The notes under the pieces were generated by a model that worked only from the letters and a program-made list of their open reading frames with translations, made no database searches and had not been told where the DNA came from. DNA of 42,292 bases from sequence record NC_041897.1; one strand, written 5' to 3'. The stretch's first letter is position 1. Each line of letters begins with the position of its first letter. Source of the stretch: Escherichia phage K1ind1. This document shows positions 1,264-26,655 of this stretch, piece after piece. The position numbers and the translations under genes are program-made.

Positions 1264-2745
1264 ATGTTAACTATGAACGGTCAGAATCAGGGTGTTAAGA
1301 CAAAACACCGGGAATGGCTGCATCACTTCGATAAATGGCAGAAGGTGCGCCACGCACTGGAGGGTGACCTTATCCGCTATCTGCGAAACGTCGGGAAGAA
1401 CGAGCCGGACCCAACTTATGCAGCCCAGCGCCAGGAAGAATACGAGAACGGCGCTATCTGCTACAATTTCACCAAGCGTACCCTGTCGGGTATGGTTGGC
1501 TCGGTAATGCGAAAAGACCCGGAGCAGATTATTCCACGTGAACTGGAATACCTGTTACGCAATGCCGATGGCTCGGGTGTCGGCCTGTGGCAGCACGCGC
1601 AGGATACGCTGATGGAGATTGACTCGGTGGGTCGTGGCGGTTTACTGGTGGATGCGCCGGAGACAGCGGCAGCGACGGCAGCCGAACAGAACGCCGGATT
1701 ATTAAACCCGGTCATCGCATTCTATACCGCAGAGAACATCATCAACTGGCGACTCACTCGCGTAGGCTCTGTTAACCGCGTTACGATGGTAGTGCTGCGT
1801 GAGGTATGGGAATATTCAGAACCTGGAGCCGAGTTTGAAACCAAGTTTGGGGAACAATACCGCGTTCTCGACTTGATTGACGGGCGCTACCGTCAGCGCA
1901 TATACCGATTCGATGCGGAAGGCGGCGCGCAAGACGAAGTAATAGAAATCTTCCCGGAACTGGGCGAACAGTTGCGCGGTAAAATCCCGTTCACGTTCAT
2001 CGGGGCCAGCAACAACGACGCGACGGTTGATGACGCGCCTTTGCTGCCGTTAGCTGAGCTTAATATCGGGCATTTTCGCAACAGCGCAGACAATGAGGAA
2101 TCTAGCTTCGTTGTAGGCCAGCCCACTCTGTTCATCGCCCCCGGTGAGAACATGAGCATGGTGCAATGGAAAGAGGCCAACCCCCACGGCGTACGTATGG
2201 GTTCACGTTCGGGCCACAATATCGGCTACGGCGGCAACGCGTTTCTGGTCCAGGCGGGAGAGAATAACCTCGCCAAACAGAACATGTTGGATAAAGAGAA
2301 TCAGGCAATCCAGATTGGTGCACAGCTTATCACGCCTACGCAGCAAATCACCGCCGAATCCGCTCGCCTGCAACGTGCTGCCGATACGTCCGTAATGGCG
2401 ACCATTGCGCGTAACGTAAGCATGGCGTACACCGAAGCGTTGCGTTGGGTGGCTGCGATGCTGGGTCTACGCGAAGGAACGGAAATTGAGTTCAAGCTGA
2501 ATATGGAATTCTTCCTGCAACCAATGACCGCTCAGGACCGTGCGCAGTGGATGGCAGACATTAATGCCGGTTTACTACCGGCAACTGCTTACTACGCCGC
2601 GTTGCGTAAGGCTGGGGTAACTGACTGGACTGACGAGGAGATTACAACGGCTATTGAGGATGCACCTGTGCCGTTAGGCGCTGTTACTCAGGTAACTGGC
2701 GAGATTCCGCAGTCGGCGCAACAGCAGGATGCCACCCAGCAGTAA
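1264..2745 (+). CDS. portal protein
   Basis: 493 aa ORF immediately after terL; size, position and acidic C-terminus typical of portal proteins. Confidence 0.7.
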   Translation: MLTMNGQNQGVKTKHREWLHHFDKWQKVRHALEGDLIRYLRNVGKNEPDPTYAAQRQEEYENGAICYNFTKRTLSGMVGSVMRKDPEQIIPRELEYLLRNADGSGVGLWQHAQDTLMEIDSVGRGGLLVDAPETAAATAAEQNAGLLNPVIAFYTAENIINWRLTRVGSVNRVTMVVLREVWEYSEPGAEFETKFGEQYRVLDLIDGRYRQRIYRFDAEGGAQDEVIEIFPELGEQLRGKIPFTFIGASNNDATVDDAPLLPLAELNIGHFRNSADNEESSFVVGQPTLFIAPGENMSMVQWKEANPHGVRMGSRSGHNIGYGGNAFLVQAGENNLAKQNMLDKENQAIQIGAQLITPTQQITAESARLQRAADTSVMATIARNVSMAYTEALRWVAAMLGLREGTEIEFKLNMEFFLQPMTAQDRAQWMADINAGLLPATAYYAALRKAGVTDWTDEEITTAIEDAPVPLGAVTQVTGEIPQSAQQQDATQQ

Positions 2746-2755
2746 GTCCGCATAT

Positions 2756-2777
2756 AGCCCCGAAAGGGGCTTTCTTA
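2756..2777 (+). terminator. hairpin AGCCCC-GAAA-GGGGCT followed by interrupted T-run (possible partial terminator/RNA stabiliser)
   Basis: stem-loop read directly; same hairpin sequence recurs at 4325. Confidence 0.35.
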
Positions 2778-2781
2778 TAGT

Positions 2782-3858
2782 ATGCTATTAACTTTAGCGC
2801 CACAGGGTTTATCTATGAGCTTACTTACATCGCTAATCAGCCACCAGATATGGCTGCAACGCACCGCATCCGGCGAAGTGAAAGACCTCGCGCCGTTCAT
2901 TAAGGAAATGCGGGACGAAATCAAACGGCAGGTGCTGCTATTCGGTGACGACGGGCGTAGCACCGCGCGACTGAATAAACTGTTACGCGACCTGGAAGAA
3001 GCACTGGCAGGACTTACAGGTGACTGGCGAACAAAGCTGACAGAAGACCTTAAGGAACTGGCAGCGTATGAGGCGGAGTGGAACGTAAAAACGCTGACGA
3101 CTAACGTCAACGCGGAATTTGTTACACCTACCGCCGAACAGGTGTGGGCCGCTGCCGAGTTTCAGCCCTTATCGTTAAGCTACAAACCTGTTGATTTCAC
3201 TAAGCTGATGTCAGGCTGGGGTGAAACCGAAGTCGCGCGCCTGGTAACGGGTGTTAAGATGGGCTTTGTACAAGGTCAAACCACGCGGCAGATTGTTAAG
3301 AATGTTGTTGGTGCCGGTGGGCTAACTGACATATCTGAGCGCACCGCGGCTACCGTCATCCGCACCGCGCTGTCTCACGTGTCCAACGAAGCCCGTAACG
3401 AGACGTACCGCCAGAACGACGACATCATCGAGAAGTACGAGTGGGTGTCAACGCTTGACAGCCGCACCAGTACGATTTGCAGGGTCAGAGACGGAATGAC
3501 GTGGAGAATCGGTAAAGGTCCGATGCCCCCCGCCCATCCTAACTGTCGAAGTACCACGGCCCCTGTAATCAGTTCCGAGTTCGACTTCCTCGATAAAGGC
3601 GCAAAACGCGCGGCTAAAGGCGCATACGGCGGTACTCAGGTAAGCGCGGACACCACTTATTACGAGTTCCTGAAACAACAGCCTGCATGGTTTCAGGACC
3701 AGGCGCTCGGCCCTGTTCGCGGTAAGATTTTCCGTAACAGCGGTATATCGCCGGAAGAGTTTCGCGTAATATCTGTAGATGGTTTCGGGAATCCGCTCAC
3801 GCTTAAACAGATGGCGGAACTCGATAAACGTGTTGCTGATTATCTGAAAGGGGATTAA
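2782..3858 (+). CDS. head morphogenesis / minor head protein (Mu F / SPP1 gp7-like position)
   Basis: 358 aa ORF following portal; assignment by synteny and size, not by a recognised motif. Confidence 0.5.
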   Translation: MLLTLAPQGLSMSLLTSLISHQIWLQRTASGEVKDLAPFIKEMRDEIKRQVLLFGDDGRSTARLNKLLRDLEEALAGLTGDWRTKLTEDLKELAAYEAEWNVKTLTTNVNAEFVTPTAEQVWAAAEFQPLSLSYKPVDFTKLMSGWGETEVARLVTGVKMGFVQGQTTRQIVKNVVGAGGLTDISERTAATVIRTALSHVSNEARNETYRQNDDIIEKYEWVSTLDSRTSTICRVRDGMTWRIGKGPMPPAHPNCRSTTAPVISSEFDFLDKGAKRAAKGAYGGTQVSADTTYYEFLKQQPAWFQDQALGPVRGKIFRNSGISPEEFRVISVDGFGNPLTLKQMAELDKRVADYLKGD

Positions 3859-7888: not shown

Positions 7889-8401
7889 ATGCCGCTAATC
7901 GTGGAAACGGGTGAAATCGTCCCTAATGCCGACAGTTACATTAGCCTGGCTGACGCCCGCGCGTTAGCGGCTAATTATGGTCTTGAGTTACCTGTCGACG
8001 ATACCGCCGCAGAGGTGGCCCTGCGAAATGGTGCTACATACGTCGGCCTGTCTGAACCTCAGATGTGCGGTCGCCGTGTGTCAGCAGAGCAGTCGCTGGC
8101 GTACCCGCGCACAGGGGTGACTCTGAACGGCTTCCCTGTGGCGAACAATGTAATCCCTAAGCAGGTAATTCTCGCACAGGTAATCGCCGCGGTAACATAC
8201 GGCGCAGGCACAGAGGTGCGTGCCAACTCGGACGGGCGTTCAGTACAGACTGAGCGCGTAGAGGGCGCAGTAACCATCACCTATTTCAACAACGGCAGTT
8301 CTGGCGCTACTACATCAATCACCGCAGCCGATGATGCATTGCGCCCGCTTCTTTGCGGAGGCCTTAACAATGGCTTCTCGTTTAACGTGTACCGGGGTTA
8401 A
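7889..8401 (+). CDS. hypothetical structural protein (connector region)
   Basis: 170 aa; position between capsid and tail genes. Confidence 0.4.
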   Translation: MPLIVETGEIVPNADSYISLADARALAANYGLELPVDDTAAEVALRNGATYVGLSEPQMCGRRVSAEQSLAYPRTGVTLNGFPVANNVIPKQVILAQVIAAVTYGAGTEVRANSDGRSVQTERVEGAVTITYFNNGSSGATTSITAADDALRPLLCGGLNNGFSFNVYRG

Positions 8402-8403
8402 AA

Positions 8404-9018
8404 ATGGCGAAGACTAAAACAGAGATATTTACGCTAATCGGGTCTGAATTGCCGGATAACACAACCGGGCTAATCACCCCTGAGAAGTTACGCGGTGTTC
8501 TCACTCAAATGGCTGACCCGCCTATTTATGCCAACCCTGGCGTGAAAGAGGTTGAGGTGCTACGTGCGGCATCTACTGTCGTTCAGGCTCCGTCCGCGGT
8601 CGATACCGCGTTGCAACTAACCTTCGGTGCAGCGCAGGGTAGTGCCTCTGACCCTGTCATGATTAATGCCGCGGGTCTGGTAACTTTCAATACCGCGGGC
8701 AACTATGCCGTTCGCATTAAGCTACAGGCTGGGAGAACCGGAGCCAGCGGCACGTCTATCTTGTTGTCACGCATTCTGGTAAACGGCGCTCAGTACGGCT
8801 CGCCGGCAGCTACGAAACTGGTTAGCGCGGAAACTACCATCCCTATTGAATCCCGTGTAGTTATTAACCCAACCTCCGGACAAACATTTGCCGTTCAGAT
8901 TATGCGAGACAGCGCTGGGGCAAACTTCGGCGGCGTATATCCGCAGGCCGCAACAGTGACCGCATGGGGTACAGCACCTTCGGCATTACTGGTTATCTCG
9001 AGACTGGAGGCCGCGTAA
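8404..9018 (+). CDS. hypothetical structural protein
   Basis: 204 aa; stop overlaps next start (TAATG). Confidence 0.4.
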   Translation: MAKTKTEIFTLIGSELPDNTTGLITPEKLRGVLTQMADPPIYANPGVKEVEVLRAASTVVQAPSAVDTALQLTFGAAQGSASDPVMINAAGLVTFNTAGNYAVRIKLQAGRTGASGTSILLSRILVNGAQYGSPAATKLVSAETTIPIESRVVINPTSGQTFAVQIMRDSAGANFGGVYPQAATVTAWGTAPSALLVISRLEAA

Positions 9019-9377
9019 TGAGCACCGCCTTTAGTAAACGTATGCAGGGCGTGGGTACACGCCTGCTAGCCAAATTCGGCAGCACGGTATCTCTGGTTCG
9101 CGCTGGCTCGAAAGTGTGGGATGAAGTTCTCGGCGAATACATCTGGTCAGATGATGAAGTGCTGCCGCTGAAAGCCGTACCCGTTCCGGTTAACTCGGGC
9201 TTGGTTAACGGCACAACCATTCAGGCGGGAGACATGGTTGTTAAAGCGGATTGCAGTGTCGTGCCAAAAATGGAAGACAAGGTACAATTCGGCGGCGAGC
9301 AATGGTCTGTCGTAGCTATCGAGAAGAAGATGGTTAACGATGATGTCGTGGCGTATTTTATTCAGGTGAGAAAATGA
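9018..9377 (+). CDS. head-tail adaptor / head closure-like protein
   Basis: about 119 aa from ATG 9018; position in neck gene run; translationally coupled to flanking genes. Confidence 0.4.
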   Translation: MSTAFSKRMQGVGTRLLAKFGSTVSLVRAGSKVWDEVLGEYIWSDDEVLPLKAVPVPVNSGLVNGTTIQAGDMVVKADCSVVPKMEDKVQFGGEQWSVVAIEKKMVNDDVVAYFIQVRK

Positions 9378-9769
9378 GTTTCGCGCTTGATGTCTCTAAG
9401 TTCGTGGAAAAGGCGAAGAAGAACCCCGAGAAGGTGATGCGTCAGGTGTCTATCAAACTGTTTTCCGCTATCATAAAGGCAAGTCCGGTAGATACAGGTC
9501 GCTTTCGTATGAACTGGATGGCGTCTGGCGGCACTCCCGCTTCCGGAATTACAGACGCTACGGATAAATCAGGAAACACGGCAACCGGAAACGCTACAAG
9601 TTTCGTGCTTAAAGCTACAGACTGGCGCGAGTTCACGCTGACAAATAATCTGCCGTATGCACAACGGCTGGAGTATGGCTGGTCGCAACAGGCGCCACAA
9701 GGTATGGTAAGAACTAATATATCGCGTTTCCAGCAACTCATTAACGAAGAAGCCAACAAGGTGAAATGA
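9374..9769 (+). CDS. neck / tail-completion protein (HK97 gp10-like)
   Basis: 131 aa; size, position and LEYGWS-type motif reminiscent of HK97 gp10 family. Confidence 0.45.
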   Translation: MSFALDVSKFVEKAKKNPEKVMRQVSIKLFSAIIKASPVDTGRFRMNWMASGGTPASGITDATDKSGNTATGNATSFVLKATDWREFTLTNNLPYAQRLEYGWSQQAPQGMVRTNISRFQQLINEEANKVK

Positions 9770-10182
9770 TGGGCTACTTTGAGGACTTAACGAAAGCGTT
9801 TGATGCGCCGCTGGTAGCCTTCGGAACCGCCAACGGCATCAAGGTCGCGCTTGAAAATATCGACGCGCCGACGTCAACCGATACGCCGTATCTGGCAAGT
9901 TATATGTTGCTGGCGGATACGGAACAGGCGGATTTGTTCTTCACGGAACAACGCGCGGGTGTTTATCAGGTCGACATTAACTACGCATCGGTGAAAGGTA
10001 GCGCGCCGATCAATAAAATGGCAGACTTACTTAACACGGCGTTTAAAGCAGGTAAGTCATTTTCACGTAACGACATCTGCGCCGTTGTGAATGAGGTTAG
10101 CCTGGGGCCGCTGATTGTAGAAAACGGATGGGCCAAACGACCATTGTCAATTAACTTTATTGCATTCACCAAGAGGCTGTGA
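9766..10182 (+). CDS. tail terminator-like protein
   Basis: 138 aa; immediately upstream of major tail gene. Confidence 0.4.
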   Translation: MMGYFEDLTKAFDAPLVAFGTANGIKVALENIDAPTSTDTPYLASYMLLADTEQADLFFTEQRAGVYQVDINYASVKGSAPINKMADLLNTAFKAGKSFSRNDICAVVNEVSLGPLIVENGWAKRPLSINFIAFTKRL

Positions 10183-10184
10183 AT

Positions 10185-11351
10185 ATGGCTACAACTCCTT
10201 TTAAGGGCGCGAATACTGCGCAATTCTATGTGGCAGAAACTACCCCGGGCGTAACACCGACTAACCCGGTCTGGTCGCCATTGCGTAACACAGGTGGCGT
10301 TCCTGCCATTACCCGCGACACGCTGACCTCCAACGAACTGGACGGCAGCCGTGAAACTACGTCAATCCGCACCGGTAACAAGCAGGTTAGCGGAGAATAC
10401 GCTATTGAGCTTAGCTCGAAAAGCCAGGACGACTGGCTGGCGGGTGCTTTAGGCTCTACATGGCAATCCGGTAGTTCTCTGACCGGGCTATCAATTACCG
10501 TCGCGCCTGCAGGCAAGACCTTTACCCGTGCCGAAGGTAGCTTTATTTCTGACGGCGTTGAAGTGGGCGACCTGATTGCGTTTACCGACTTAACCGGTGA
10601 CAACGCAAAACCGTTTATCGTAACTGCAGTAGAGGCACTGGTAGTGACCGGGGCGGGTATCCAGCATACCCTGACCACAGAGACAGTAACTACCGCCGCT
10701 AAGACAGGGGATAAACTGGAAACGGGAAGCCAGTGCAAGACGTTCTCTATTCTCACCTGGTACAAAGGCCAGTGCGGCGGGACTGACGCGTACACACTAA
10801 CCAAAGGCGTGGAAGTTTCTGGTTTTACCATCGAACAGGCTGTTAACGCTATGGTAACTGGCAGCTTCCCGTTCATCGGTCGCAGTCAGGAGATTCTCAC
10901 CACGCAGCCGTCTGGTTCTGATTTCTCCTCTGTTACGTTTGGTGACGAGCCGTTCTCCTCGGTCGATGTTTCTGTGTTCGACGGTTCTACGCCGTTGCGT
11001 TGCGACAGCCTGACCATCACCAACGACAACAGCGCGTCCGCACAGTTCGAACTCGGCAACACTAACGTAGCGTTTGTGGAGCGTAGCCGAGCAGCTAACA
11101 CCTTCTCCATCTCCGGTAAGCTGTACGACATGGCGATGATTCAGAAGTTTATCAACGAGCAGCAGGTGGAGATTAACTCTATTCTGGCGGGGGTAAACGG
11201 GGCTATGTCTTTCAGCTTGAAACGTGCAGAACTTACCGCGGTTACACCTGAGATTGGCGGGCCTGAGTCAATCACTCAGTCCATCGAAGGCCAGGCTACT
11301 GGTAACCAGTACCAGTCGTCTATTGTTATTCAGCGCATCACCTACGCATAA
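10185..11351 (+). CDS. major tail protein
   Basis: about 388 aa from ATG 10185 (AAGAGG RBS); T/S/G-rich; precedes chaperone/tape-measure genes; followed by strong terminator. Confidence 0.55.
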   Translation: MATTPFKGANTAQFYVAETTPGVTPTNPVWSPLRNTGGVPAITRDTLTSNELDGSRETTSIRTGNKQVSGEYAIELSSKSQDDWLAGALGSTWQSGSSLTGLSITVAPAGKTFTRAEGSFISDGVEVGDLIAFTDLTGDNAKPFIVTAVEALVVTGAGIQHTLTTETVTTAAKTGDKLETGSQCKTFSILTWYKGQCGGTDAYTLTKGVEVSGFTIEQAVNAMVTGSFPFIGRSQEILTTQPSGSDFSSVTFGDEPFSSVDVSVFDGSTPLRCDSLTITNDNSASAQFELGNTNVAFVERSRAANTFSISGKLYDMAMIQKFINEQQVEINSILAGVNGAMSFSLKRAELTAVTPEIGGPESITQSIEGQATGNQYQSSIVIQRITYA

Positions 11352-11355
11352 AACT

Positions 11356-11380
11356 AAGGCCCCTTTCGGGGCCTTTTTCT
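11356..11380. terminator. bidirectional rho-independent terminator
   Basis: AGGCCCC-TTTC-GGGGCCT hairpin flanked by T-run on plus strand and TTAGTTTT on minus strand; separates major tail gene from convergent island. Confidence 0.6.
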
Positions 11381-11934
11381 TACAAACCTAATATTAAAGC
11401 AATACCTATAGCGTTCGATTTAACGTAACCCGGTATGATGTAGGTGTCATAATCTTTTACACCATCAATATCGTACAGGTAACCGCGGCTGTCCCCTTCA
11501 AACGTATGGCCGTCTCTGTGCAAGCGGACGATTCTCACATCATGCCCTGCGGCAACGATAGGGGCTACTTCGCTGGCGAACCCGCCATCAGACACCACAA
11601 AAACTTCGTCGCCGTCGGGCAAGTTTCCGGCAAGATACTTACCGAAATAATCATCACCGAATACCGGTTTAATGAATTGCTCGGAAATGGCAATCATGAG
11701 CTGACGCCGAGACAACCCGTTAAGGAAACCCTCTGGCTTTTCTTTCCGCGCCCGGTCGTCGTAGCCGTCGAGAAACTCGCGGTAAGCATCCTGGCCTAAC
11801 GCAGCCATAGCAATATTGAACATCGGATTCTTGAAACTGGCGACACCCTTCGCAAAGCCCATTTCTACCAGCGCCCTAGCAAGTGTGTCTTTCCCGCAGC
11901 CCGCAGGACCATTAAGAATAATTACCTTAGCCAT
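11380..11934 (-). CDS. P-loop nucleotide/polynucleotide kinase (dNMP-kinase-like)
   Basis: 184 aa; Walker A GPAGCGKDT near N-terminus; small alpha/beta kinase size; last gene of leftward island. Confidence 0.6.
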   Translation of the reverse strand: MAKVIILNGPAGCGKDTLARALVEMGFAKGVASFKNPMFNIAMAALGQDAYREFLDGYDDRARKEKPEGFLNGLSRRQLMIAISEQFIKPVFGDDYFGKYLAGNLPDGDEVFVVSDGGFASEVAPIVAAGHDVRIVRLHRDGHTFEGDSRGYLYDIDGVKDYDTYIIPGYVKSNAIGIALILGL

Positions 11935-12419
11935 TATTTATCACTCCCATGTGGTTTTAAGTGTGTAGAGTTCCCGTTACAGTCGTATTCAGTAACTGCG
12001 TGAGTGGTTATGCCGAGTTCGCGGAAATGCTTTATTACCGCTGGAGAGTCGTCGAATGCACACAAGATTCTCTCCGGCCCAATAGCACGCAACACCTCTT
12101 CTTTAATTACGATGTCTTTTCTGTTGTCGTGTTTGCTGCGCATGATTAACTGATAAAATTCGACGCGGTGGCGCTGCAACCACATTCTGGTTTCTTTTTC
12201 CGCGTCATCACTACGGCCTGTTAAGATAATAACGGCATAGCGACGATTAAGGGCGTTACACAGTTCGATGTTATCTTTAATGGGTGCATCGTCTTTGCAC
12301 GCCATGTTAAATGGTTTCCACGCCCAGGTTTCGCCGTAGTTATCTTTCGGCAGCAGGTGTAAACGATGAGTACCATCTGCCAATGTCCCGTCTAAATCGA
12401 AAATCACAATATCTTTCAT
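11934..12419 (-). CDS. HAD-superfamily phosphatase
   Basis: 161 aa; HAD motif I FDLDGTL, motif II ILTGR, motif IV FDDS; start overlaps upstream stop (ATGA). Confidence 0.65.
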   Translation of the reverse strand: MKDIVIFDLDGTLADGTHRLHLLPKDNYGETWAWKPFNMACKDDAPIKDNIELCNALNRRYAVIILTGRSDDAEKETRMWLQRHRVEFYQLIMRSKHDNRKDIVIKEEVLRAIGPERILCAFDDSPAVIKHFRELGITTHAVTEYDCNGNSTHLKPHGSDK

Positions 12420-13546
12420 CCAAGCATCTCCGGTGAAATAGTTAAACGTGCGACCTCGCCATATTCGGCGCTATAAGTAATTACGTTTGCACTGCGGCCC
12501 GACATCCACCCACCGCGGGAGGCATATGCATCTTTAGCCGCGAGAGTGCGGTGTTGCTCAACAATCATGTTACGGCTTTCTACAATCTTTTGGTGGTGCA
12601 GGTGACCCACGTGGGCGTAGCTGTAAACACTCTCGCCGAACGCTTTGCGGAACTTGGCGATCATAACCGGTTCGATAGCGTCGAATCGTGCTTTATGCCC
12701 ATGATGGAAGAACAGCGTCGTTTTGCCGTGTTGCACCATCTTGTAAACATCCGGCGACGTATCGACGAACACACGCGGCTCATTGTCGTACAGCGTACTA
12801 AACATCTCAGCTAACCAAATCATTCCGCTTTCGTCGTGGTTACCTTGCACAATAAGCAAGCGAACATTTTTATGCTTAACAAGGGCCATATCAACGACAC
12901 GGCGGACCATACGAATCATGTAGCGGACCAGTTTCTGATAGCGCGTGTCCGCATCGAGAACATGACCACTTGCCGGTGTAACGGCGTCCAGGCTATCGAA
13001 GTGCGCAAGGTCGCCGAGCAGATTAATAACTCCTGTTCCTGCATCCGGCGCTTTCTGAAACGCGGCATCGAACCAACGAGAGAACAGGTCTTCCGCGATT
13101 TTCATATCCCAGTCGTCGCCGCTCTCGTCAGCCCATGCCAGCATACCGAGGTGAAAATCAGATACCGTGTAAAGATTGAGTAGCTTGCCGTCGCGTTTGG
13201 CGCGTGCTGCTTTAACAGGGGCGACTGGCGTAATCTCTGATTTCATTCCTTCGATTACGGCTTTCATCAACTCGACCTGACGTTCAGCATCGGTGTCTGT
13301 CTTAACCCATTGCAACTTAGTGTTGCCGAACTCGTCCACCAGCGACGACGTTCCTTTAATCTTGTAGCCGTCCGGCACAAGGTGACTAACGTCGCGCCCG
13401 TGGCCTACGCCTTTCTTAGCCAGCTTCGCTTTACGGATACGGATAACGCGGTCAGAGATGCCGTATTTACGAGCTATATCGATATTCTTCATCCCGGCGT
13501 TCAATTCTTCCTGCAACTGTTCGTCGGTTATTTTCTTCTGGGCCAT
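12416..13546 (-). CDS. HTH domain fused to calcineurin-like metallophosphoesterase
   Basis: 376 aa; N-terminal HTH (NIDIARKYGISDRVIRIRKAKL); metallophosphoesterase motifs SDFHLG, GDLAHFD, GNHDE, HHGH, GHLHH; GAGGAAG RBS. Confidence 0.65.
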   Translation of the reverse strand: MAQKKITDEQLQEELNAGMKNIDIARKYGISDRVIRIRKAKLAKKGVGHGRDVSHLVPDGYKIKGTSSLVDEFGNTKLQWVKTDTDAERQVELMKAVIEGMKSEITPVAPVKAARAKRDGKLLNLYTVSDFHLGMLAWADESGDDWDMKIAEDLFSRWFDAAFQKAPDAGTGVINLLGDLAHFDSLDAVTPASGHVLDADTRYQKLVRYMIRMVRRVVDMALVKHKNVRLLIVQGNHDESGMIWLAEMFSTLYDNEPRVFVDTSPDVYKMVQHGKTTLFFHHGHKARFDAIEPVMIAKFRKAFGESVYSYAHVGHLHHQKIVESRNMIVEQHRTLAAKDAYASRGGWMSGRSANVITYSAEYGEVARLTISPEMLG

Positions 13547-13584
13547 ACTTACTTCCTCGTGTTTAGGATTTGTCCTATACTAGC

Positions 13585-13776
13585 TCACTTCTCGTTAACA
13601 TTCGAGTTGCACGCCCAGATTAAAATAAAGACCCACGGCAGCAGCGCCCAGCCAAGAAACAGATTAGCCATGAATATCGCTAACTTCGCTTTATGGTTAC
13701 GGAAGTACGCAACCAGGAAAGGCGCAAAATAAACGAGAAGTGCAAACAGAATTAAGGAAACTGGTAAACTTGACAT
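13585..13776 (-). CDS. small membrane protein, superinfection-immunity (Imm) family-like
   Basis: 63 aa from second ATG (GGAGG RBS); two hydrophobic helices flanking RNHKAKLAIF...GWALLPW, a pattern resembling the Imm superinfection family. Confidence 0.5.
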   Translation of the reverse strand: MSSLPVSLILFALLVYFAPFLVAYFRNHKAKLAIFMANLFLGWALLPWVFILIWACNSNVNEK

Positions 13777-13806
13777 TTTAAATCCCTCCATTGTTGGTGT
13801 AAGTGA

Positions 13807-13835
13807 ATAGTACCCTATTATATTGGGGTGTGCAA
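13807..13835 (-). promoter_or_regulatory. sigma70-like promoter TTGCAC-17-TACTAT with embedded AATAG-N4-CTATT palindrome (13806-13819)
   Basis: minus-strand reading CTTGCACACCCCAATATAATAGGGTACTATTCAC is nearly identical to the plus-strand cassette at 35342; lies about 30 nt upstream of the Imm-like gene. Confidence 0.5.
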
Positions 13836-13943
13836 GTAATGTGATAGAATAATTTTGCGCCTAGTGTCGCACACGAAAAGCGGATGGTTACCGTCTGGCG
13901 CATTTATCGTTAACCTGTAACCTCTTAACCAAAGGATTAAAGA

Positions 13944-14360
13944 ATGAAACTTTCTGATTTTTATTTCGAAGAGAAAGCACTGGCGGGCAAGAAGATGCCG
14001 ATTTTGCTGCCGAATGGTGAAGACTCCGGCGAGTGGCTTAATGTCGTAAATCCTGATGCGGATGCCGCCGTTAAAGCGGGGCGTGCTTTCATTATTGCGT
14101 ACCGCCGCGGGCTGGCACGTTTTGAAGAACTGGAAAAAGCTGCCAAAGACTCTGGTGATTATACTGAATATAATCTGGCGGTTAACGAACTGGCGGAAGA
14201 CCTAAACCGGCAACTCGCGGCAGAAGTCGTAAACGGCTGGAGCTTTGATGAGCCTTTCTCTAAGGAAGCGTTTAACAAATTGCTCGACCAGTTCAAAGCA
14301 TTAGGCACACAGGTAGCTGCGTTTCATAACGCTGAGCGCAAAGCATTACAGGAAAAGTAG
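13944..14360 (+). CDS. tail assembly chaperone (gpG-like)
   Basis: 138 aa acidic protein immediately upstream of tape measure; classic position. Confidence 0.55.
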   Translation: MKLSDFYFEEKALAGKKMPILLPNGEDSGEWLNVVNPDADAAVKAGRAFIIAYRRGLARFEELEKAAKDSGDYTEYNLAVNELAEDLNRQLAAEVVNGWSFDEPFSKEAFNKLLDQFKALGTQVAAFHNAERKALQEK

Positions 14361-14725
14361 ACGCGCTGTACAGGTTCGCCACCTACGAGTTCGTTGATAA
14401 GCATAAAATCAGAGAGTTTGATTCTATAGCCGACGGACATGAACAGGCGCTTATCGCGATGGGTGTAATCGATAAGAAAAAACGTGCAGCGCGACGGGGT
14501 GGGCCAGAATGCCCGCCCCTTTTTATATCCACCTTTGAGACGTATTGCGACATTAAGTTTACGCGACACGTGCGCGAGGACGCTGTAGTATTGTTTGCAA
14601 GAGAATCTGTTACGTGGCAAGACCTGAAAGCCTATCTCGATGTTATGCAAAAACAGCTTAGCCTGTTCGAGATAGACATTATCATGGGCTTAGAAGCAAT
14701 CTTTGAAGGTAGAAATCATGGCTGA
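13944..14725 (+). CDS. tail assembly chaperone frameshift fusion product (gpGT-like), inferred
   Basis: 0-frame ORF 13944-14360 joined to -1 frame 14336-14725; downstream ORF lacks its own RBS-ATG near the frame opening. Confidence 0.4.
14351..14357 (+). other. candidate -1 ribosomal slippery site GGAAAAG
   Basis: the -1 frame is open from 14336 to stop at 14725; A_AAA_G-type site 2 codons before the 0-frame stop. Confidence 0.4.
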
Positions 14726-16991: not shown

Positions 16992-18391
16992 TGAGCGACT
17001 TATATTTCCCACGTAGCCTTAAGCCAATTGTATCGAAAGGCTACTCAATGACCAGACGTAACAACGTCTGGAGTGTAGATTTAGCCGGTGGCGGGGTGCG
17101 TCAGGGCCGTGACACGTATTACGACGTGTTCCCTGTTAGCGTAACCCTGATTACATCCGCAATGGGGCGACAGGCGTTTCTGTCGTTCCTCGAAAAAGTA
17201 GACGGCGGTGCGTCAAGTTTCTGGATGGCGCACGACTTCGGCATGGGCATCGAAGATTATCAGGTAACCATTACGTCCACCATCGCCGAGTCCACAGAAG
17301 ACGGCATTAACTGGACGATTACTTTCACGGCAACCGCCGAGAAATCACCGTTCCAGGACCTTGAGAACCAGTGCCTGATTAACAATCTTCCGGATTTGTA
17401 CGGCTGTTACGGGGATTGTCTGGGTAGTTTCCTGAAAATATACGCGAACTACGAGACGACGTTCCCGCGCATCTGGAGCAATGAAGGACCCGCAGGTTAT
17501 CCACCGATTAACCTTCTGGCGTCGACTCTTGATAGCCGCGTTGTGTATGACGGGCCACAGGTCTATTACATCAACCGCAACGGCAATCTTGTGCAGTCCG
17601 CCGCCAATGAATGGCCCCTTACGTTTATCGATGGTTCGGCAGTTGGGCGTGTGCCACCAGAGGTATCAGTAACTAACAGATTCCTATATTCAAGCAATTT
17701 CTCTTCGTCAAACTGGAACAAAGGTTTGGTGAGTGTATCAGTATCCGAAACAGGTGTTTTAACAGCCGCAGGCACGTACGACGTAACTGCTACCACCACA
17801 AGCGGTAACCACCTAATAAACCAGACTGTAGATGTTAGCGTTGGTGTTGGAGACATGGTTACTTTTAGTTTCTTCGCAAAAGCAAACGGATACAATTTCA
17901 TACGGATGTACGTGCGAGAACTTCCTACAGTATTAGGCTCAGCAGTTGTGGATTTGCGGGATGGTAGCATTTATTCCGGCCCAGGCGGTACAGATGTAAC
18001 CGACGTAGGCGGAGGGTGGTTCCGGATATCGGAGACAATCACCGCAACAGAAGATAAAACAATGAGCATACGGATGGACGCATGGATATATTCAGACGGA
18101 GTTACCGGGTCCTTTGCGGGGGATGGCGTTTCAGGGATTAAATTATCCGCGGCTACCGTAGAGGTAAACCAAAATACAACATCCCCGGTAATAACCGATG
18201 CCGTTGTTGCCACCCGCACGACAGCATCCGCGAAAGTAACCATGAACGGTGCAACAAGCATCGACATCGCCTATTCCGACGGCTCTGTGGTAAACGTTCC
18301 GTCTGTTGACGGTTACGCCTCCATACCCCAAGCGGATTCGGCGTGGGGTAGTAAATATATCACTCGTATTGATTTTAATGTGGATGGTTAA
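16991..18391 (+). CDS. minor tail protein (distal tail, lambda gpM-like position) with C-terminal extension
   Basis: 466 aa; translationally coupled to tape measure; first of the tail-tip gene run. Confidence 0.45.
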   Translation: MSDLYFPRSLKPIVSKGYSMTRRNNVWSVDLAGGGVRQGRDTYYDVFPVSVTLITSAMGRQAFLSFLEKVDGGASSFWMAHDFGMGIEDYQVTITSTIAESTEDGINWTITFTATAEKSPFQDLENQCLINNLPDLYGCYGDCLGSFLKIYANYETTFPRIWSNEGPAGYPPINLLASTLDSRVVYDGPQVYYINRNGNLVQSAANEWPLTFIDGSAVGRVPPEVSVTNRFLYSSNFSSSNWNKGLVSVSVSETGVLTAAGTYDVTATTTSGNHLINQTVDVSVGVGDMVTFSFFAKANGYNFIRMYVRELPTVLGSAVVDLRDGSIYSGPGGTDVTDVGGGWFRISETITATEDKTMSIRMDAWIYSDGVTGSFAGDGVSGIKLSAATVEVNQNTTSPVITDAVVATRTTASAKVTMNGATSIDIAYSDGSVVNVPSVDGYASIPQADSAWGSKYITRIDFNVDG

Positions 18392-18394
18392 CTT

Positions 18395-18910
18395 ATGAGT
18401 CAGGAATCAGTAGAAGCAGCCTATCGCCGTAAGCTGGCCTCAAATCCCGACGGCGAGATGGACTACATCACGTTGCAAATCAGTCACCCGTTGCTATCGA
18501 AGACGTACTATCTTGTGCGCGGGCTGCAGGAACTTACGGCAACACTGGAGACGGGCGAAACAATCACGTTCGAACCCACCCCGATGGAGGCGTCGGGGGC
18601 CGCTAACAACAGCGATATGGACCAGACGACGACGTTTACTTTACCGGATATTCTCAATCAACTGGATGATGAGATGGATAAAATCCCGATGAGTAACACC
18701 GAGTTACCGAAGTTCGTATTCCGCCGTTACGTCAGCACCGACCTGTCTTACCCAGCGGACGGCCCGGTCGTGTACGAGTTACAGGCTATCAACCAGGAGA
18801 AGGGCGAGTTCTCCGCAGATGTCGGTACACCTATGCTGAACCAACGAAGCACTGGTATACTGATGACACCTAAAGAGATACCGTTATTACGCGGCCTGTT
18901 GACCACATGA
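18395..18910 (+). CDS. minor tail protein (gpL-like position)
   Basis: 171 aa; synteny within tip gene run. Confidence 0.4.
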   Translation: MSQESVEAAYRRKLASNPDGEMDYITLQISHPLLSKTYYLVRGLQELTATLETGETITFEPTPMEASGAANNSDMDQTTTFTLPDILNQLDDEMDKIPMSNTELPKFVFRRYVSTDLSYPADGPVVYELQAINQEKGEFSADVGTPMLNQRSTGILMTPKEIPLLRGLLTT

Positions 18911-19272
18911 ATATTAACGACTACACGGGCATACCTTACGACTTTCGCAAACGCAATTGCTGGCATCACGTGCGCATTGTCCGCGCGGATGCAGGGTTAG
19001 AAACCCCTGCGTTCGACGTTACAAGCCCAACGGCAATTAACGAAGCGTTTGACGAAGGCCACCGTGACACGAAGGGGCTTACAAAAATTGATAAGCCTGA
19101 AAACTTCTGCGCGGTGCTTATGGGTTATCGCCGCGGGGGTCGTATCGTGTGGCATGCGGGAGTTTACTTCGACGGGATGGTTAGCCATTGCGAGCTTGCT
19201 TCTCGTCAGGTACGGCTTGACAGGCTGGCGGACCTCAGAGACACGTACACGGAGATTGAATTTTGGCGATAA
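18907..19272 (+). CDS. tail assembly protein with NlpC/P60-like fold (gpK-like)
   Basis: 121 aa; candidate catalytic Cys (RNCWHHV) and His (WHAGVY) in NlpC/P60 arrangement. Confidence 0.5.
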   Translation: MNINDYTGIPYDFRKRNCWHHVRIVRADAGLETPAFDVTSPTAINEAFDEGHRDTKGLTKIDKPENFCAVLMGYRRGGRIVWHAGVYFDGMVSHCELASRQVRLDRLADLRDTYTEIEFWR

Positions 19273-21818
19273 TCCTGCACTACACGCGAAACGCTGATGG
19301 CGCTTTCGACCGTACAAAACACGTCGGGACGCCGATGGAGTTTGTCGTTAACCGTATCCCGGACGGCGTGCCGGTGCGCGTCTACCTCGGCGAGATTGGC
19401 GATGATACTGATGTAACCGACGACTTCGATGCGCTTAAAGACGAAGACGCCGTGTACCACATTATTGAGGGAGCTGGTAGCGGGGCGCTTGGCGCCGTTA
19501 GTAAGGTGTTTGGTTTTATCCTTAAGCCAATCGCTAAGTTGTTCGGCCTGAACATGTCTGCAAACGCCAACTACACGGCGACTAATAACCAGACAACATC
19601 GCCAAATAATAGCCTTACCGACCGCTCAAACAAGCCGCGTCCTTACGAGCGCTCTTATGACATCTGCGGGACTGTACAGACAATCCCTAACGACCTTATG
19701 CAGACGTATAAGGCGTTCAACTCCACGGGTGCTTTGCTGGAGTATTCGTATTATGACGCTGGGCGCGGGCATCTGCATATCGAGGCTGATGGCGTCACAG
19801 AGGGCGACACCCTGATAAGCGACATCACAGGTTCCTCTGTTGCCATATACGCGCCGTATACGTCACCGAACAACACCACATCTCCGCAACTACAAATCGG
19901 CGACATCATTGACCAGAAACTCTATGTGACATACTCCAACGACGACGTTGACGGTATTGTACTAAAAGCGCCAAACGACATTGGGGCCAACCCAAGCGCT
20001 GATGGTACCGCAAAACGTATTTCAAACACCGGCTACATCTATGACCCGTCAGGGGACTCTGCTTTTTCTGAGTTTCTTAGCGTCGGTGATGTGGCAGTGC
20101 TGAGCAACTTTGACGTTGCTGATGTCACTAACCTGAACGGCTCGTTTGAGGTTTTATACGTTGACGACTTCGAAGTAAGATTAGCCGTAAACGGCGCGTC
20201 TAACTGGGCAGCGTTGACCAGCGGGCAAACGTACGCCCTAACAGAGCGTTCAGATACGTTTATCGGCCCTAGCAACACCTATGACGTATCCCTGACAGAC
20301 TGGTATTACATGGTGCGCGGAGAAGTTGACCGGGTGCTTGCTAACGTTGCCGGGCAGAACGGCCTCTACAAATACGACGGCGGCTATAACCGCACCAGCG
20401 TAACCGTAGAACTCCAGTACCAGATGATTGACTCTCAGCGTAACCCGTTGAGCGATATTTACACGGTACAGGCTACGATTACTGGTAATAGCACGGATTA
20501 CGTCGGCACGTCCATTTATGGGCAGTTGCCAACCGCATCGCGTTTCCGCGCCCGCATGCGCCGTATAACGAATTTCGATAAAGACTACAACGGCACGGTA
20601 AGTGACGAGATAACCTTCATCAACCTGTACGGTCAGTCTCTGGACACCACACCGCACTACGGCAACCGAACTACCGTACATTGCGCCCGTAAACAGACTC
20701 CGCGGGCTGCGAGTATAGACAACCCGGAACTGCGCATGATCGCTACCGAGATGTGCTACAAATACCTCGGCAATGGGGTATTCGATACAGTAATGTCGCC
20801 AAACACTCAGGCCGTGCAGTCGCTAATCAGACTGGCCCATGACCCGGCGGTAGGTAACTTAGAACTGACAACCGCAAACATGGACAAGTTACTCGCTGTG
20901 CAGGAAGAAATTGAGTCCTATTTCGGAAGTGAATTGGCAGGGCAGTTCTGCTACACGTTCGACGACTACGACACCACGATGCAGGACATCGTTCAGACTA
21001 TAGCGGAAGCCGTGTTCTGTACTGCGTACCGTAAAGGCGCGGATATCATGCTGCGATTCGACCGTCCGGTTGCGGGGCCTGAAATGGTGTTCACCCACCG
21101 CAGCAAAACTACCGGTACAGAGAAATGGACCCGCACGTTCAACGATTCGACAACCTACGATAGCCTGTCGTTCTCGTACATCGACCCGGATACTAATGTA
21201 CAGGAAACGATTTATATCCCGGAAGAACTCGGCGCAAATACTGAGGAATACGAATCTAAGGGCGTGCGCAATTATCAGCAAGCGTACTGGCTGGCGTGGC
21301 GTCGCTACCAGCGCAATGCGTTAAGTAAAGTTGTCGTAGAGTTCGAAGCTACCGAAGAGGGGGCACTCGCTACCCCGGGTGGCGTAATCAGCGTGGTTAA
21401 AGGCTCGCGTATCGCGCCTCAGGATGGTTATGTTGTTGCCGTTAATGGGCTTACGCTGACACTGTCTCAGCCCGTTACGTTTACCCCCGGAGACGACCAC
21501 TCCATCATCCTTAAGAAGCGAGACGGTTCGGTGCAGAGTATCTCTGTGGTCGAAGGAAGCCATGACCGTGAGGTGATTATGCTCTCCGCGCCGGAGGAAG
21601 CAATATACACCGGGAATAGCGCACTAAAAACTGAGTTTTCATTCGGCAACGAAGCAAGGCATAATGCTCAGAAGATAGTTGTTTCTTCAATCGACCCGGG
21701 CGACGACCGCACGGTCAAGATTACTGGTTACAACTATGACGACGAATTCTATAAATACGACGGCGTCGCGCCATACGGCAGCGGTTTCTCCGACGGATTC
21801 AGCAATGGTTTTAATTAA
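19263..21818 (+). CDS. tail tip / central tail fiber protein (gpJ-like, with gpI-like N-terminal segment)
   Basis: 851 aa; largest tip protein following M/L/K-like genes; start codon uncertain (TTG at 19263 or internal ATG at 19335). Confidence 0.55.
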   Translation: MAIILHYTRNADGAFDRTKHVGTPMEFVVNRIPDGVPVRVYLGEIGDDTDVTDDFDALKDEDAVYHIIEGAGSGALGAVSKVFGFILKPIAKLFGLNMSANANYTATNNQTTSPNNSLTDRSNKPRPYERSYDICGTVQTIPNDLMQTYKAFNSTGALLEYSYYDAGRGHLHIEADGVTEGDTLISDITGSSVAIYAPYTSPNNTTSPQLQIGDIIDQKLYVTYSNDDVDGIVLKAPNDIGANPSADGTAKRISNTGYIYDPSGDSAFSEFLSVGDVAVLSNFDVADVTNLNGSFEVLYVDDFEVRLAVNGASNWAALTSGQTYALTERSDTFIGPSNTYDVSLTDWYYMVRGEVDRVLANVAGQNGLYKYDGGYNRTSVTVELQYQMIDSQRNPLSDIYTVQATITGNSTDYVGTSIYGQLPTASRFRARMRRITNFDKDYNGTVSDEITFINLYGQSLDTTPHYGNRTTVHCARKQTPRAASIDNPELRMIATEMCYKYLGNGVFDTVMSPNTQAVQSLIRLAHDPAVGNLELTTANMDKLLAVQEEIESYFGSELAGQFCYTFDDYDTTMQDIVQTIAEAVFCTAYRKGADIMLRFDRPVAGPEMVFTHRSKTTGTEKWTRTFNDSTTYDSLSFSYIDPDTNVQETIYIPEELGANTEEYESKGVRNYQQAYWLAWRRYQRNALSKVVVEFEATEEGALATPGGVISVVKGSRIAPQDGYVVAVNGLTLTLSQPVTFTPGDDHSIILKKRDGSVQSISVVEGSHDREVIMLSAPEEAIYTGNSALKTEFSFGNEARHNAQKIVVSSIDPGDDRTVKITGYNYDDEFYKYDGVAPYGSGFSDGFSNGFN

Positions 21819-25838: not shown

Positions 25839-26655
25839 TTACCGCCCCCATGAATGCCTTTATAAATTCAGCGGCTACTTGCGGGACGATGGCATTGCCA
25901 TAACCGCGCAATCGTCCCACTCTGGCGGGTATCCCATTAGCCAGCGGGAATGCGCCGGGTTCAACTGGCCTGAATTTTCCATCCCGGCATCCGAGCCAGT
26001 CAGTATCTGACCAGAAGCCGTGATGCGGATTGGTTGTGTTATTTTCAGACCCTGCTCCGTCGAGTAGTCCAGCCTGTCGAATGTCCTGTCCTTCCCGTCC
26101 TTGCGAATCACTGTCTCTCCGCTCCCCCTGTAGTCGTTCGCTGTCGGTGTAGGCCAATTGGTGCGCACCAAAGAAGAGCCGCTCTCTTTTGTGCGGTGCG
26201 CCGACGCTACAAGCTGGAAGTACGGCAAACCCGACGGCGTAGTCTTCTCTTTCCATGTGAATCTGTAAATCGCACATCCACGATTTTGCAATTGCTGGCG
26301 CAACCTGTTCCCCAAAGAGGACTGGAGGGCGGCACTCGCTGATGAGGTCGAGGAACACAGGTGCAAGGTGTCTAGGGTCGAACTGTCCGAGTTGCTTTCC
26401 CGCCGCGCTAAACGGTTGGCAAGGCGGGCTTCCCGTCCAGAGAGGCGCATCTTCCGGAACTCCCGCAAGTCTGAGCGCGAGAGGCCAGCCGCCGATACCC
26501 GCGAAAAAATGACACTGGGTGAACCCGTCAAGGTCTTCTGGCTTAACTTCGGTAATGCTTCTTTCATCTACAACTCCAAAAGGTATGTGACCCTGTTTTA
26601 TTAATTCACGCAGCCACGCGGCTGCACCTTTATCCCATTCGTTGTAATAGTTCAT
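25831..26655 (-). CDS. DNA (cytosine-5)-methyltransferase
   Basis: 274 aa; motif I FAGIGG, motif IV PCQPFS, ENV-like FGEQV, C-terminal motif X GNAIVPQV; short target-recognition region. Confidence 0.75.
   Translation of the reverse strand: MNYYNEWDKGAAAWLRELIKQGHIPFGVVDERSITEVKPEDLDGFTQCHFFAGIGGWPLALRLAGVPEDAPLWTGSPPCQPFSAAGKQLGQFDPRHLAPVFLDLISECRPPVLFGEQVAPAIAKSWMCDLQIHMEREDYAVGFAVLPACSVGAPHKRERLFFGAHQLAYTDSERLQGERRDSDSQGREGQDIRQAGLLDGAGSENNTTNPHHGFWSDTDWLGCRDGKFRPVEPGAFPLANGIPARVGRLRGYGNAIVPQVAAEFIKAFMGAVNE

Follow-up and report, generated by a model that had tools for sequence, protein, structure and literature searches.

The locus examined here, from a 42,292-nucleotide stretch of Escherichia phage K1ind1 (NC_041897.1; "the window"), raises the question of what a phage protein does when it carries an N-terminal helix-turn-helix (HTH) in front of a calcineurin-like metallophosphoesterase. 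An earlier note, made from the sequence alone, had pointed to such a fusion; the ORF lies where that note placed it, begins with ATG and encodes 376 amino acids plus a stop codon on the minus strand (ORF list; Table 1). The source phage belongs to the K1ind-type Kagunaviruses, and its protein shares 99.5% identity with ORF20 of K1ind3 (GenBank entry). The description of the fusion as unusual did not survive comparison with phage protein families. The PHROG 704 HMM ("DNA repair exonuclease") matches the protein over its full length (E=1e-167, 559 bits), aligning residues 3-375 with positions 1-389 of its 390; tblastn recovered relatives in 2042 of 50,697 phage records (~4%), with 1955 covering at least 80% of the protein, and 4632 clusters at 50% identity were matched, nearly all with the same N-terminal module. 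The tblastn matches include T1-like Drexlerviridae, Dhillonvirus, Jersey-like, Vibrio and Campylobacter phages and N4-like roseophages. PHROG 704 members (T1 p16, Era103 gp26, K1ind3 ORF20, and those of Jersey, Dhillonvirus, Vibrio, Campylobacter and N4-like roseophages) share the HTH, adaptor and core architecture, identical invariant residues and a length class of mostly 360-420 aa, and the K1ind1 protein is a typical member in which we saw no difference. The HTH-metallophosphoesterase is a catalogued phage family, already known, and as a sequence feature is no discovery. Routine annotations of its relatives read 'metallophosphoesterase', 'winged helix-turn-helix domain-containing protein' or 'DNA repair exonuclease'; the last, as the name of PHROG 704, is a transferred annotation.

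The earlier note had also not recognised the architecture from well-characterised phage proteins, and here our searches agree with it. A literature search aimed at this family (by its PHROG and VOG identifiers and its domain combination), at phosphoesterases of Kagunavirus, Jersey, Dhillon and T1-like phages, and at escape mutants found no characterised function, biochemical or genetic, for any PHROG 704-type phage protein, and turned up only non-orthologous mycobacteriophage work. Sequence searches with the protein alone or with a 76-sequence profile returned nothing significant among solved structures.

Table 1. Features of the HTH-metallophosphoesterase locus of K1ind1 (window coordinates)
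Feature	Coordinates	Strand	Basis
Candidate sigma-70-like promoter of the island, ATCACA-17-TATAAT, 10/12 matches	13817..13845	-	Consensus scan only
Superinfection-immunity membrane protein, 68 aa, upstream gene of same minus-strand island	13585..13791	-	Pfam Imm_superinfect E=2.4e-13; PHROG 1039
Shine-Dalgarno GAGGAAG, 5 nt 5' of ATG	13552..13558	-	Sequence read directly
Complete ORF, HTH-metallophosphoesterase	12416..13546	-	K1ind3 ORF20 equivalent; PHROG 704
Tri-helical HTH, residues 5-45, KITDEQLQEELNAGMKNIDIARKYGISDRVIRIRKAKLAKK	13412..13534	-	AF2 helices, weak GerE/FixJ matches, Pfam HTH across relatives
Flexible linker, residues 46-60, GVGHGRDVSHLVPDG	13367..13411	-	Low pLDDT
Adaptor: beta-hairpin 61-85 and helix 87-102	13241..13366	-	AF2 secondary structure
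Binuclear metallophosphoesterase core, residues 119-376	12419..13192	-	Predicted
Motif I, VSD130-F-H132-LG	13145..13165	-	D130, H132 100% conserved
Motif II, LLG178-D179-LAH182-FD184	12995..13021	-	G178, D179 100%; H182 96%; D184 95%
Family-specific conserved loop TPASGHVLDADTR (T190, P191, L197, D198, D200, R202)	12941..12979	-	Conservation 88-99%
Motif III, VQG235-N236-H237-D238	12833..12850	-	N236, H237 100% conserved
Motif IV, FFH281-H282-G-H284	12695..12712	-	H282 100% conserved
Motif V, HVG314-H315-L-H317-H	12593..12613	-	H315 94%, H317 99% conserved
HAD-type polynucleotide 3'-phosphatase, 161 aa, downstream gene	11934..12419	-	Pfam HAD_PNKP 72.1 bits vs cutoff 27.6; PHROG 415 E=8e-67
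P-loop kinase, 184 aa, dNMP-kinase/polynucleotide-kinase-like	11380..11934	-	PHROG 139 E=5.8e-46
Bidirectional GC-rich hairpin terminator, closes island and converging tail gene	11356..11375	.	Scan: 8-bp stem, 6 GC pairs, both strands

Conservation was calculated from a MAFFT alignment of 139 representatives with mutual identity of at most 50%. Two of the three large homology searches gave only Kagunavirus proteins 95-99% identical, which were of no use for a deep alignment, and a profile made from 55 distant representatives was needed instead. All of the canonical metallophosphoesterase motifs claimed for the protein were recovered: five are present, conserved at 88-100% in the 139 divergent relatives, and the motif residues are invariant in further family alignments too. 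This predicted five-motif set is far beyond chance, and the predicted core is missing none of the metal ligands or catalytic residues (D130, H132, D179, N236, H237, H282, H315 and H317). In the AF2 model (pLDDT 83, pTM 0.71) the core is canonical and compact, with the calcineurin-like beta-alpha-beta-alpha-beta sandwich fold, and the family-specific loop at residues 190-202 has pLDDT values of 68-75 and no regular secondary structure. The protein misses the Pfam gathering cutoffs (21.5 bits versus 27 for Metallophos_2, 18.9 versus 21.5 for Metallophos), and some relatives pass a Pfam metallophosphoesterase cutoff (P0144, for example, with 25.1 bits); the Pfam metallophosphoesterase models are, by these scores, too distant from the PHROG 704 family.

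The note's proposal of a roughly 45-residue HTH upstream of the phosphoesterase held, with one correction. A predicted HTH does occupy residues ~5-45, but the catalytic domain does not follow it directly, since ~75 residues lie between them, comprising the linker, the conserved beta-hairpin and helix of the adaptor, and a second linker. AF2 places helices at residues 8-16, 21-28 and 32-44 with pLDDT values of 72-89. Taken alone, the K1ind1 protein matches HTH models weakly at residues 8-45 (GerE, E=0.012 and 15.7 bits versus a cutoff of 23.5; FixJ, E=0.0035), and NCBIfam gave a weak FixJ HTH match and nothing else. Pfam HTH models match 42 of 76 relatives (HTH_1, best E=7e-12), and among the 25 listed of the 32 Pfam families matched in 124 divergent representatives, every non-phosphoesterase family is an HTH family (among them HTH_1, HTH_8, HTH_50, Sigma70_r4_2, GerE and Fis-type). 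Relatives with divergent or longer N-termini still carry HTHs, and 109-181 residues precede motif I in all 139 representatives. Judged from sequence matches and the model, a tri-helical HTH is present family-wide at a homologous N-terminal position. The N-terminal segment does not fold within the catalytic domain, the outcome that the earlier note had named as contrary to its proposal; the AF2 model instead supports a real two-module architecture in which the HTH would be a separate, flexibly tethered unit.

The linker has pLDDT values of ~54-59, falling below 50 at residues 46-51; within it G46 is invariant and P49 and P58 are at least 90% conserved (alignment A3), and a G[YF]SPEHD-like motif recurs in the linker of most relatives (representative N-termini). 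In the adaptor hairpin, G74 and W80 are conserved at 93% and 94%. The 320-aa relative from Campylobacter phage PC5 aligns over 317 columns and therefore probably lacks only ~56 N-terminal residues; to go by these lengths, the adaptor module is apparently retained together with the catalytic core in relatives that have no HTH.

HTHs are not confined to targeting an enzyme to DNA; autoregulation and contacts with other proteins are further uses, which counts against the nuclease reading set out below. Alternatively, the protein could be primarily a transcription regulator, whose HTH (LuxR/GerE, sigma-70 region 4 or LysR-like) controls the early-to-late switch or its own operon, with the phosphoesterase as sensor or accessory. 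The Sigma70_r4_2 matches in 14 of the 124 representatives (best E=1.5e-9), those to GerE, HTH_1 and Fis-type models, and the frequent location of the gene immediately before Q-like antiterminators and late genes are in keeping with such a role. We nevertheless find this regulator role very unlikely: the near-absolute conservation of all catalytic residues argues for a probably active enzyme, and 5' of the operon we found only short, chance-level matches and no convincing operator-like repeat.

As the earlier note had anticipated, the catalytic fold is shared with Mre11/SbcD; the nearest solved folds of the core are the DNA nucleases PolD-DP1, Mre11 and SbcD. The similarity to Mre11/SbcD (e.g. 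3qg5, 7dog, 6s6v) lies at the level of fold only, with 183-192 residues aligning against chains of 319-476, and no Mre11/SbcD chain in the PDB sequence set was hit by phmmer (E up to 10) or by the 76-sequence profile (E up to 1). The K1ind1 protein lacks the Mre11/SbcD capping domain; in the AF2 model the chain stops at residue 376, after the final strands of the core and a short helix. Mre11/SbcD bind DNA via Rad50, whereas the K1ind1 protein has its N-terminal HTH, and no Rad50/SbcC-like gene was found among window ORFs of 150 aa or more, in the K1ind3 annotation, or among the 25 commonest PHROGs listed for the three flanking genes per side in 33 lineages. The PolD small subunit DP1, a 3'-5' proofreading exonuclease (5ihe), is 14% identical to the K1ind1 protein; it has an OB fold and works in the DP1-DP2 polymerase, whereas the phage protein has the HTH and the hairpin/helix and is accompanied by no DP2-like gene. 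For the phage polymerase, the K1ind3 annotation says no more than 'putative DNA polymerase'. The small stand-alone phosphodiesterases MJ0936 and YfcE (Pfam Metallophos_2) differ in being single-domain proteins of 165-185 aa with no HTH, adaptor or 190-202 loop.

Phage-encoded enzymes offer a functional comparison. Mycobacteriophage metallophosphoesterases are nucleases experimentally and are needed for replication or counter-defence (PMC11795197, PMC12287305): A10ZJ24 gp48 breaks down DNA both in vitro and in vivo (PMC12287305), and Bxb1 gp47 is a recombination directionality factor and replication protein (PMC11795197, PMC12287305). Both are likewise calcineurin-like enzymes of the DNA-replication module, and the structural neighbours of Bxb1 gp47 are Mre11 and DP1, as for the K1ind1 protein. 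These PHROG 221 proteins are nevertheless ~255 aa long, with motif I at the very N-terminus (D10 in gp48) and neither HTH nor adaptor. Orthology was rejected, as hhalign against the mycobacteriophage family gave a probability of 6.6% over 20 columns around GNHD and Bxb1 gp47 matches PHROG 221, not 704. To judge from these comparisons, the mycobacteriophage enzymes are superfamily relatives and not orthologues of the K1ind1 protein, and by analogy they are its best functional precedent. The missing Mre11 capping domain and Rad50-like partner, and the lack of a detectable sequence relation to Mre11/SbcD or the mycobacteriophage proteins, count against a nuclease.

Because the core is closest to PolD-DP1, Mre11 and SbcD, an HTH-targeted DNA phosphodiesterase or nuclease is the best available reading. 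We give about even chances to a stand-alone, HTH-tethered two-metal DNA phosphodiesterase, most probably a DNA exo/endonuclease, and on this best reading the protein may be functionally comparable to Bxb1 gp47 and A10ZJ24 gp48. The HTH would anchor the enzyme on duplex DNA, and the binuclear centre would then cleave phosphodiester bonds at DNA ends or in structured or damaged DNA; the role in phage DNA metabolism could be the processing of replication/recombination intermediates or the degradation of host DNA. A protein phosphatase analogous to lambda NinI, the lambda Ser/Thr phosphatase, would belong to the same superfamily, and in lambdoid-like contigs the gene occupies the equivalent position, after NinB/NinG and before Q or late genes. 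The PPP-type combination of GDxHG, GDxVDRG and GNHE motifs with a closest fold match was not found, however, and this alternative is highly improbable.

In K1ind1 the gene appears to be the second in a four-gene minus-strand operon, with translational coupling to the split polynucleotide kinase/phosphatase that follows it; the ATG of the HAD phosphatase overlaps the phosphoesterase stop codon (ATGA), and the kinase start overlaps the stop of the HAD phosphatase (TAATG). Under the nuclease reading, the three products could form an end-processing set in which the nuclease trims, the HAD enzyme takes off the 3'-phosphate and the kinase adds the 5'-phosphate. The same overlaps also fit an end-healing enzyme that acts like the metallophosphoesterase domain of bacterial Pnkp, opening 2',3'-cyclic phosphates or removing 3'-blocking groups; together with the HAD 3'-phosphatase and the P-loop kinase, it would mend tRNA or DNA that host defence nucleases have cut. 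Counting for both readings, the identical order of metallophosphoesterase, HAD phosphatase and kinase, followed by DNA ligase, recurs in the unrelated podovirus Era103 (gp26-28), and also in L038 and L040, and P-loop nucleotide kinases adjoin the gene in a few other lineages. We consider end healing unlikely, if the foremost of the alternatives. The kinase/phosphatase association is limited to few lineages, which counts against the nuclease reading, and is variable even among near-identical Kagunaviruses; the pair was rejected as an obligate partner.

The wider context, which speaks for the nuclease reading, was surveyed in 33 non-redundant lineages over the three genes closest to the gene on either side. 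Upstream of it lie, among others, NinB/Orf, NinG/Rap, endonuclease VII, exonuclease, HNH endonucleases, DnaB and primase, and downstream neighbours include Q-like antiterminators, lysis genes or TerS-TerL-portal. Most relatives thus sit at the boundary of DNA-metabolism and late genes, that is, at the end of the DNA-metabolism module. Within these limits of three genes per side in 33 lineages there is no recurrent conserved partner gene, only this module-boundary position, and relatives are present in phages with and without their own polymerase.

Terminase adjacency suggests another role, as a packaging accessory nuclease or DNA-binding factor that aids terminase at pac/cos sites. HNH endonucleases encoded beside terminases provide an analogy. 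TerS-TerL-portal directly follows the gene in Dhillonvirus and in many contigs that look temperate, an HNH endonuclease comes after it in a Vibrio phage, and its HTH segment looks, by eye, like the HTH at the N-terminus of small terminase subunits encoded nearby. Yet an early-then-late module order explains this adjacency equally well, TerL is among the three nearest downstream genes in only 2 of the 33 lineages, and the gene is far from terminase in Kagunavirus, Jersey-like, T1-like, N4-like and Era103 phages, which leaves packaging with a low probability. We rate equally low a phosphodiesterase for small nucleotides (cyclic or linear signalling nucleotides, Ap4A and similar) serving counter-defence or nucleotide scavenging; the universally kept, predicted DNA-binding HTH would have no obvious role in a soluble-nucleotide hydrolase, the neighbours are DNA-metabolism genes and not anti-defence islands, and the protein matched neither the PADLOC defence models nor an anti-defence family.

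Beyond K1ind1, we raise the tentative and somewhat doubtful possibility that PHROG 704 is a distinct class of Rad50-independent, HTH-tethered Mre11/DP1-like nucleases, on which ~4% of sequenced phages, both virulent and temperate, would rely for a DNA transaction that is essential or conditionally so. Candidates would be the processing of replication/recombination intermediates, host-chromosome breakdown, and repair of defence-inflicted damage together with polynucleotide kinase/phosphatase; the T190-R202 loop and the conserved linker motif would be a new device for substrate or partner recognition.

Ordinary as a sequence feature, the HTH-metallophosphoesterase is a worthwhile experimental target. 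Among tailed phages it is one of the more frequent accessory proteins of DNA metabolism; it is spread over T1-like, Jersey/Kagunavirus, Dhillonvirus, Vibrio, Campylobacter, N4-like and lambdoid phages and carries a transferred name only, and many phages of these groups are used in phage therapy. Its recurrence in one cassette with a split polynucleotide kinase/phosphatase is a hint of a module for repair or counter-defence. Should the protein prove to be an Mre11-like nuclease that is self-sufficient and guided by its HTH, it would reveal how phages do without Rad50, and could explain host-DNA degradation or damage tolerance in these phage groups.

The 2.6-kb region around the HTH-phosphoesterase gene shows 98.7% identity with Escherichia phages K1ind3 and K1ind2 (Kagunavirus, Guernseyvirinae), and its K1ind3 counterpart, ORF20 (protein identity 99.5%), was deposited as 'hypothetical protein; similar to SETP3, Era103 and T1'. 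The ORF has GAGGAAG as ribosome-binding site, and PHROG 704 ('DNA repair exonuclease') matches its product end to end (E=1e-167). An earlier note had called this fusion unusual, a claim that did not hold: besides the full PHROG 704 match, tblastn found the protein in 2042 of 50,697 phage records (1955 of them covering >=80% of it), from phages that infect Escherichia, Klebsiella, Salmonella, Vibrio, Campylobacter, Flavobacterium, Rhodobacter and Ruegeria, among others. When 1.84 billion representatives were scanned exhaustively with HMMER, 4632 clusters matched at E<=1e-3 and 1138 at E<=1e-30, nearly all of 360-420 aa, under names such as 'metallophosphoesterase', 'winged helix-turn-helix domain-containing protein', 'DNA repair exonuclease' and 'DNA polymerase II small subunit'. 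Given this breadth, the architecture is therefore not unusual, and the protein is a standard item in tailed-phage genomes.

All metallophosphoesterase motifs reported earlier are indeed present (VSD130-F-H132-LG, LLG178-D179-LAH-FD, VQG235-N236-H237-D238, FFH-H282-GH and HVG314-H315-L-H317-H). In an alignment of 139 representatives, drawn from a library with 50% identity clustering, D130, H132, G178, D179, N236, H237 and H282 were conserved in 100%, H317 in 99% and H315 in 94%; independent alignments gave an identical invariant set. This conservation reflects selection, not chance. Pfam picks up the phosphoesterase domain weakly (Metallophos_2, 21.5 bits versus a cutoff of 27; Metallophos, 18.9 versus 21.5), so the protein could look unfamiliar to a reader. 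Outside the canonical motifs, family-wide conservation extends to a loop that follows motif II (T190, P191, L197, D198, D200 and R202) and to the N-terminal hairpin (G74 and W80).

The HTH signal is weak in the window protein alone (GerE, E=0.012, and FixJ-type matches, residues 8-45) and clear at family level, with HTH_1 in 42 of 76 relatives (best E=7e-12). Among the matches listed for 124 divergent representatives, the non-phosphoesterase Pfam families were all HTHs (HTH_1, 26; HTH_8, 19; HTH_50, 18; Sigma70_r4_2, 14; HTH_23, 10; plus others). Relatives with longer or unalignably divergent N-termini also have HTHs, some of them two, and the stretch ahead of motif I measures 109-181 residues in 139/139 representatives. 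These family-wide matches and the predicted helices bear out the proposed HTH upstream of the phosphoesterase. Function as a regulator would account for part of the context, and fits the whole less well than the nuclease role discussed below.

The AlphaFold2 model, built from a 76-sequence alignment with most rows 37-48% identical to the window protein, has a mean pLDDT of 83 and a pTM of 0.71. The earlier note had named folding of the N-terminus into the catalytic domain as an outcome that would refute its reading; the model does not show that. In a Campylobacter phage, a relative of 320 aa aligns across 317 columns and thus lacks only approximately the first 56 residues; the hairpin and following helix probably belong with the catalytic core. 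Within the otherwise disordered linker, a G[YF]SPEHD-like motif is conserved after the HTH in most relatives (GVGHGRD in the window protein), and could act as a peptide through which a partner docks.

Mre11 and DP1 rank top in fold comparison, with Foldseek in agreement; generic members of the superfamily such as Vps29, YfcE, GpdQ, Rv0805 and LpxH score 11-13 and PPP-type protein phosphatases <=9.3. In the predicted structure, the nuclease branch is thus nearest, by a modest margin. Action as a small-nucleotide phosphodiesterase or as a protein phosphatase would explain part of the context, and both fit the whole less well. No relative came up when the PDB was searched by sequence and by profile, so no solved family member is detectable by sequence; BFVD holds many viral relatives, none characterised.

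Features of the window, the predicted protein and related loci
Feature	Position	Strand	Remark
Superinfection-immunity protein	13585-13791	minus	first island gene
HTH-metallophosphoesterase ORF	12416..13546	minus	376 aa, ATG start
HAD-type polynucleotide 3'-phosphatase	11934-12419	minus	HAD_PNKP 72 bits
P-loop kinase	11380-11934	minus	PHROG 139
Promoter-like site ahead of island	13817-13845 (island, 11380-13845)	minus	
Shared bidirectional terminator	11356-11375		closes island
HTH helices	residues 8-16, 21-28, 32-44		AlphaFold2
Low-confidence linker	residues 46-58		AlphaFold2
Linker motif	residues 46-60 (13367-13411)		
Long beta-hairpin	residues 61-85		AlphaFold2
Conserved G74, W80	residues 74-80 (13307-13327)		
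Helix after hairpin	residues 87-102		AlphaFold2
Second linker	between helix 87-102 and core		AlphaFold2
Alternating beta/alpha core	residues 119-376		AlphaFold2; pLDDT >90 at motif blocks
Conserved loop	residues 190-202 (12941-12979)		
Phosphoesterase/HAD phosphatase/kinase/ligase gene order	L007 (Era103) 18114-21316; L038 6001-9252; L040 6001-9264		
HAD phosphatase + kinase present	L010, L011, L016-L018, L020-L022		Kagunavirus loci
HAD phosphatase + kinase absent	L008, L009, L012-L015, L019, L028		Kagunavirus loci
Tail tube-like gene	10179-11351		flanks island
Tail chaperone genes	from 13944		flank island
ORF22A/22B counterpart	13944-14360, 14459-14725 (span 13944-14725)		
ORF15A/15B counterpart	9766-10182		
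Overlapping ORFs	25831-26655, 25875-26567	minus	

Four minus-strand genes, of which the HTH-phosphoesterase gene is the second, sit within the plus-strand tail module, and the last three overlap through ATGA and TAATG. On one flank, two overlapping ORFs correspond to K1ind3 ORF22A/22B, annotated as a joined (frameshifted) product, the programmed frameshift usual for tail assembly chaperones; in the K1ind3 annotation, ORF15A/15B upstream of the tail tube gene are likewise joined. Elsewhere, two long minus-strand ORFs in different frames cover nearly the same stretch, and the K1ind3 annotation calls their counterparts a C-specific methylase and an 'Mte8-like protein'.

In Era103, an SP6-like podovirus, gp26 (48% identity with the window protein) is followed by gp27 (phosphatase), gp28 (kinase) and an ATP-dependent DNA ligase, and two IMG/VR contigs have this arrangement, ligase directly after kinase included, which suggests a mobile end-processing cassette common to unrelated phage groups. 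The phosphatase/kinase pair is variably present in Kagunaviruses whose phosphoesterase is 93-99% identical, and looks like a split polynucleotide kinase/phosphatase cassette recently gained or lost. Among 87 loci (80 from IMG/VR and seven GenBank phage regions), the pair adjoins the phosphoesterase only in some Kagunaviruses and the Era103-like group, a restriction that rules it out as a general partner; end healing together with the pair would cover part of the context and fits the whole less well.

Across 33 non-redundant lineages (three nearest genes each side), upstream neighbours include NinB/Orf, NinG/Rap, endonuclease VII, exonuclease, HNH endonucleases, nucleotide kinases and primase; downstream are Q-like antiterminators, lysis genes, HNH endonucleases or terminase, among others. 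Temperate-looking contigs run from DnaB through nin-type genes (NinB, NinG) to the HTH-phosphoesterase, an optional Q and TerS-TerL-portal. Thus, the gene typically closes the DNA-metabolism module. A terminase accessory would likewise match part of this context, and the whole less well. No Rad50/SbcC-like gene occurs among the window's ORFs of at least 150 aa or among the 25 commonest PHROGs listed for the neighbours in these lineages. Two phosphoesterases occur in a Paraburkholderia prophage (L091), a separate Metallophos protein of 242 aa (2340-3068), in the nin region upstream of NinB and NinG, and an HTH-phosphoesterase (8001-9188) just before TerS, and are therefore not redundant; the 1.1-kb upstream gap holds a tRNA-Thr.

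The fusion is thus confirmed but ordinary, in a family already catalogued with a putative role, on which we found no paper. Its most likely role, to which we give roughly even odds, is that of an HTH-anchored two-metal DNA phosphodiesterase: the HTH would hold the binuclear enzyme on DNA, where it would act as exo/endonuclease in phage DNA metabolism, no Rad50-type partner being needed, and in K1ind1 it would be combined locally with 3'-phosphatase and 5'-kinase activities. Among characterised phage proteins, the mycobacteriophage metallophosphoesterases come closest, with ~255 aa and no HTH, whereas the window protein has 376 aa and an HTH; orthology was rejected (PHROG 221, hhalign probability only 6.6%). 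Bxb1 gp47 likewise has Mre11 and DP1 as best structural neighbours, and its exonuclease activity is weak (PMC11795197); A10ZJ24 gp48 combines phosphodiesterase with DNase activity, breaks down host DNA and is required to overcome M. tuberculosis defences (PMC12287305). These enzymes illustrate what a stand-alone phage enzyme of the same fold can do.
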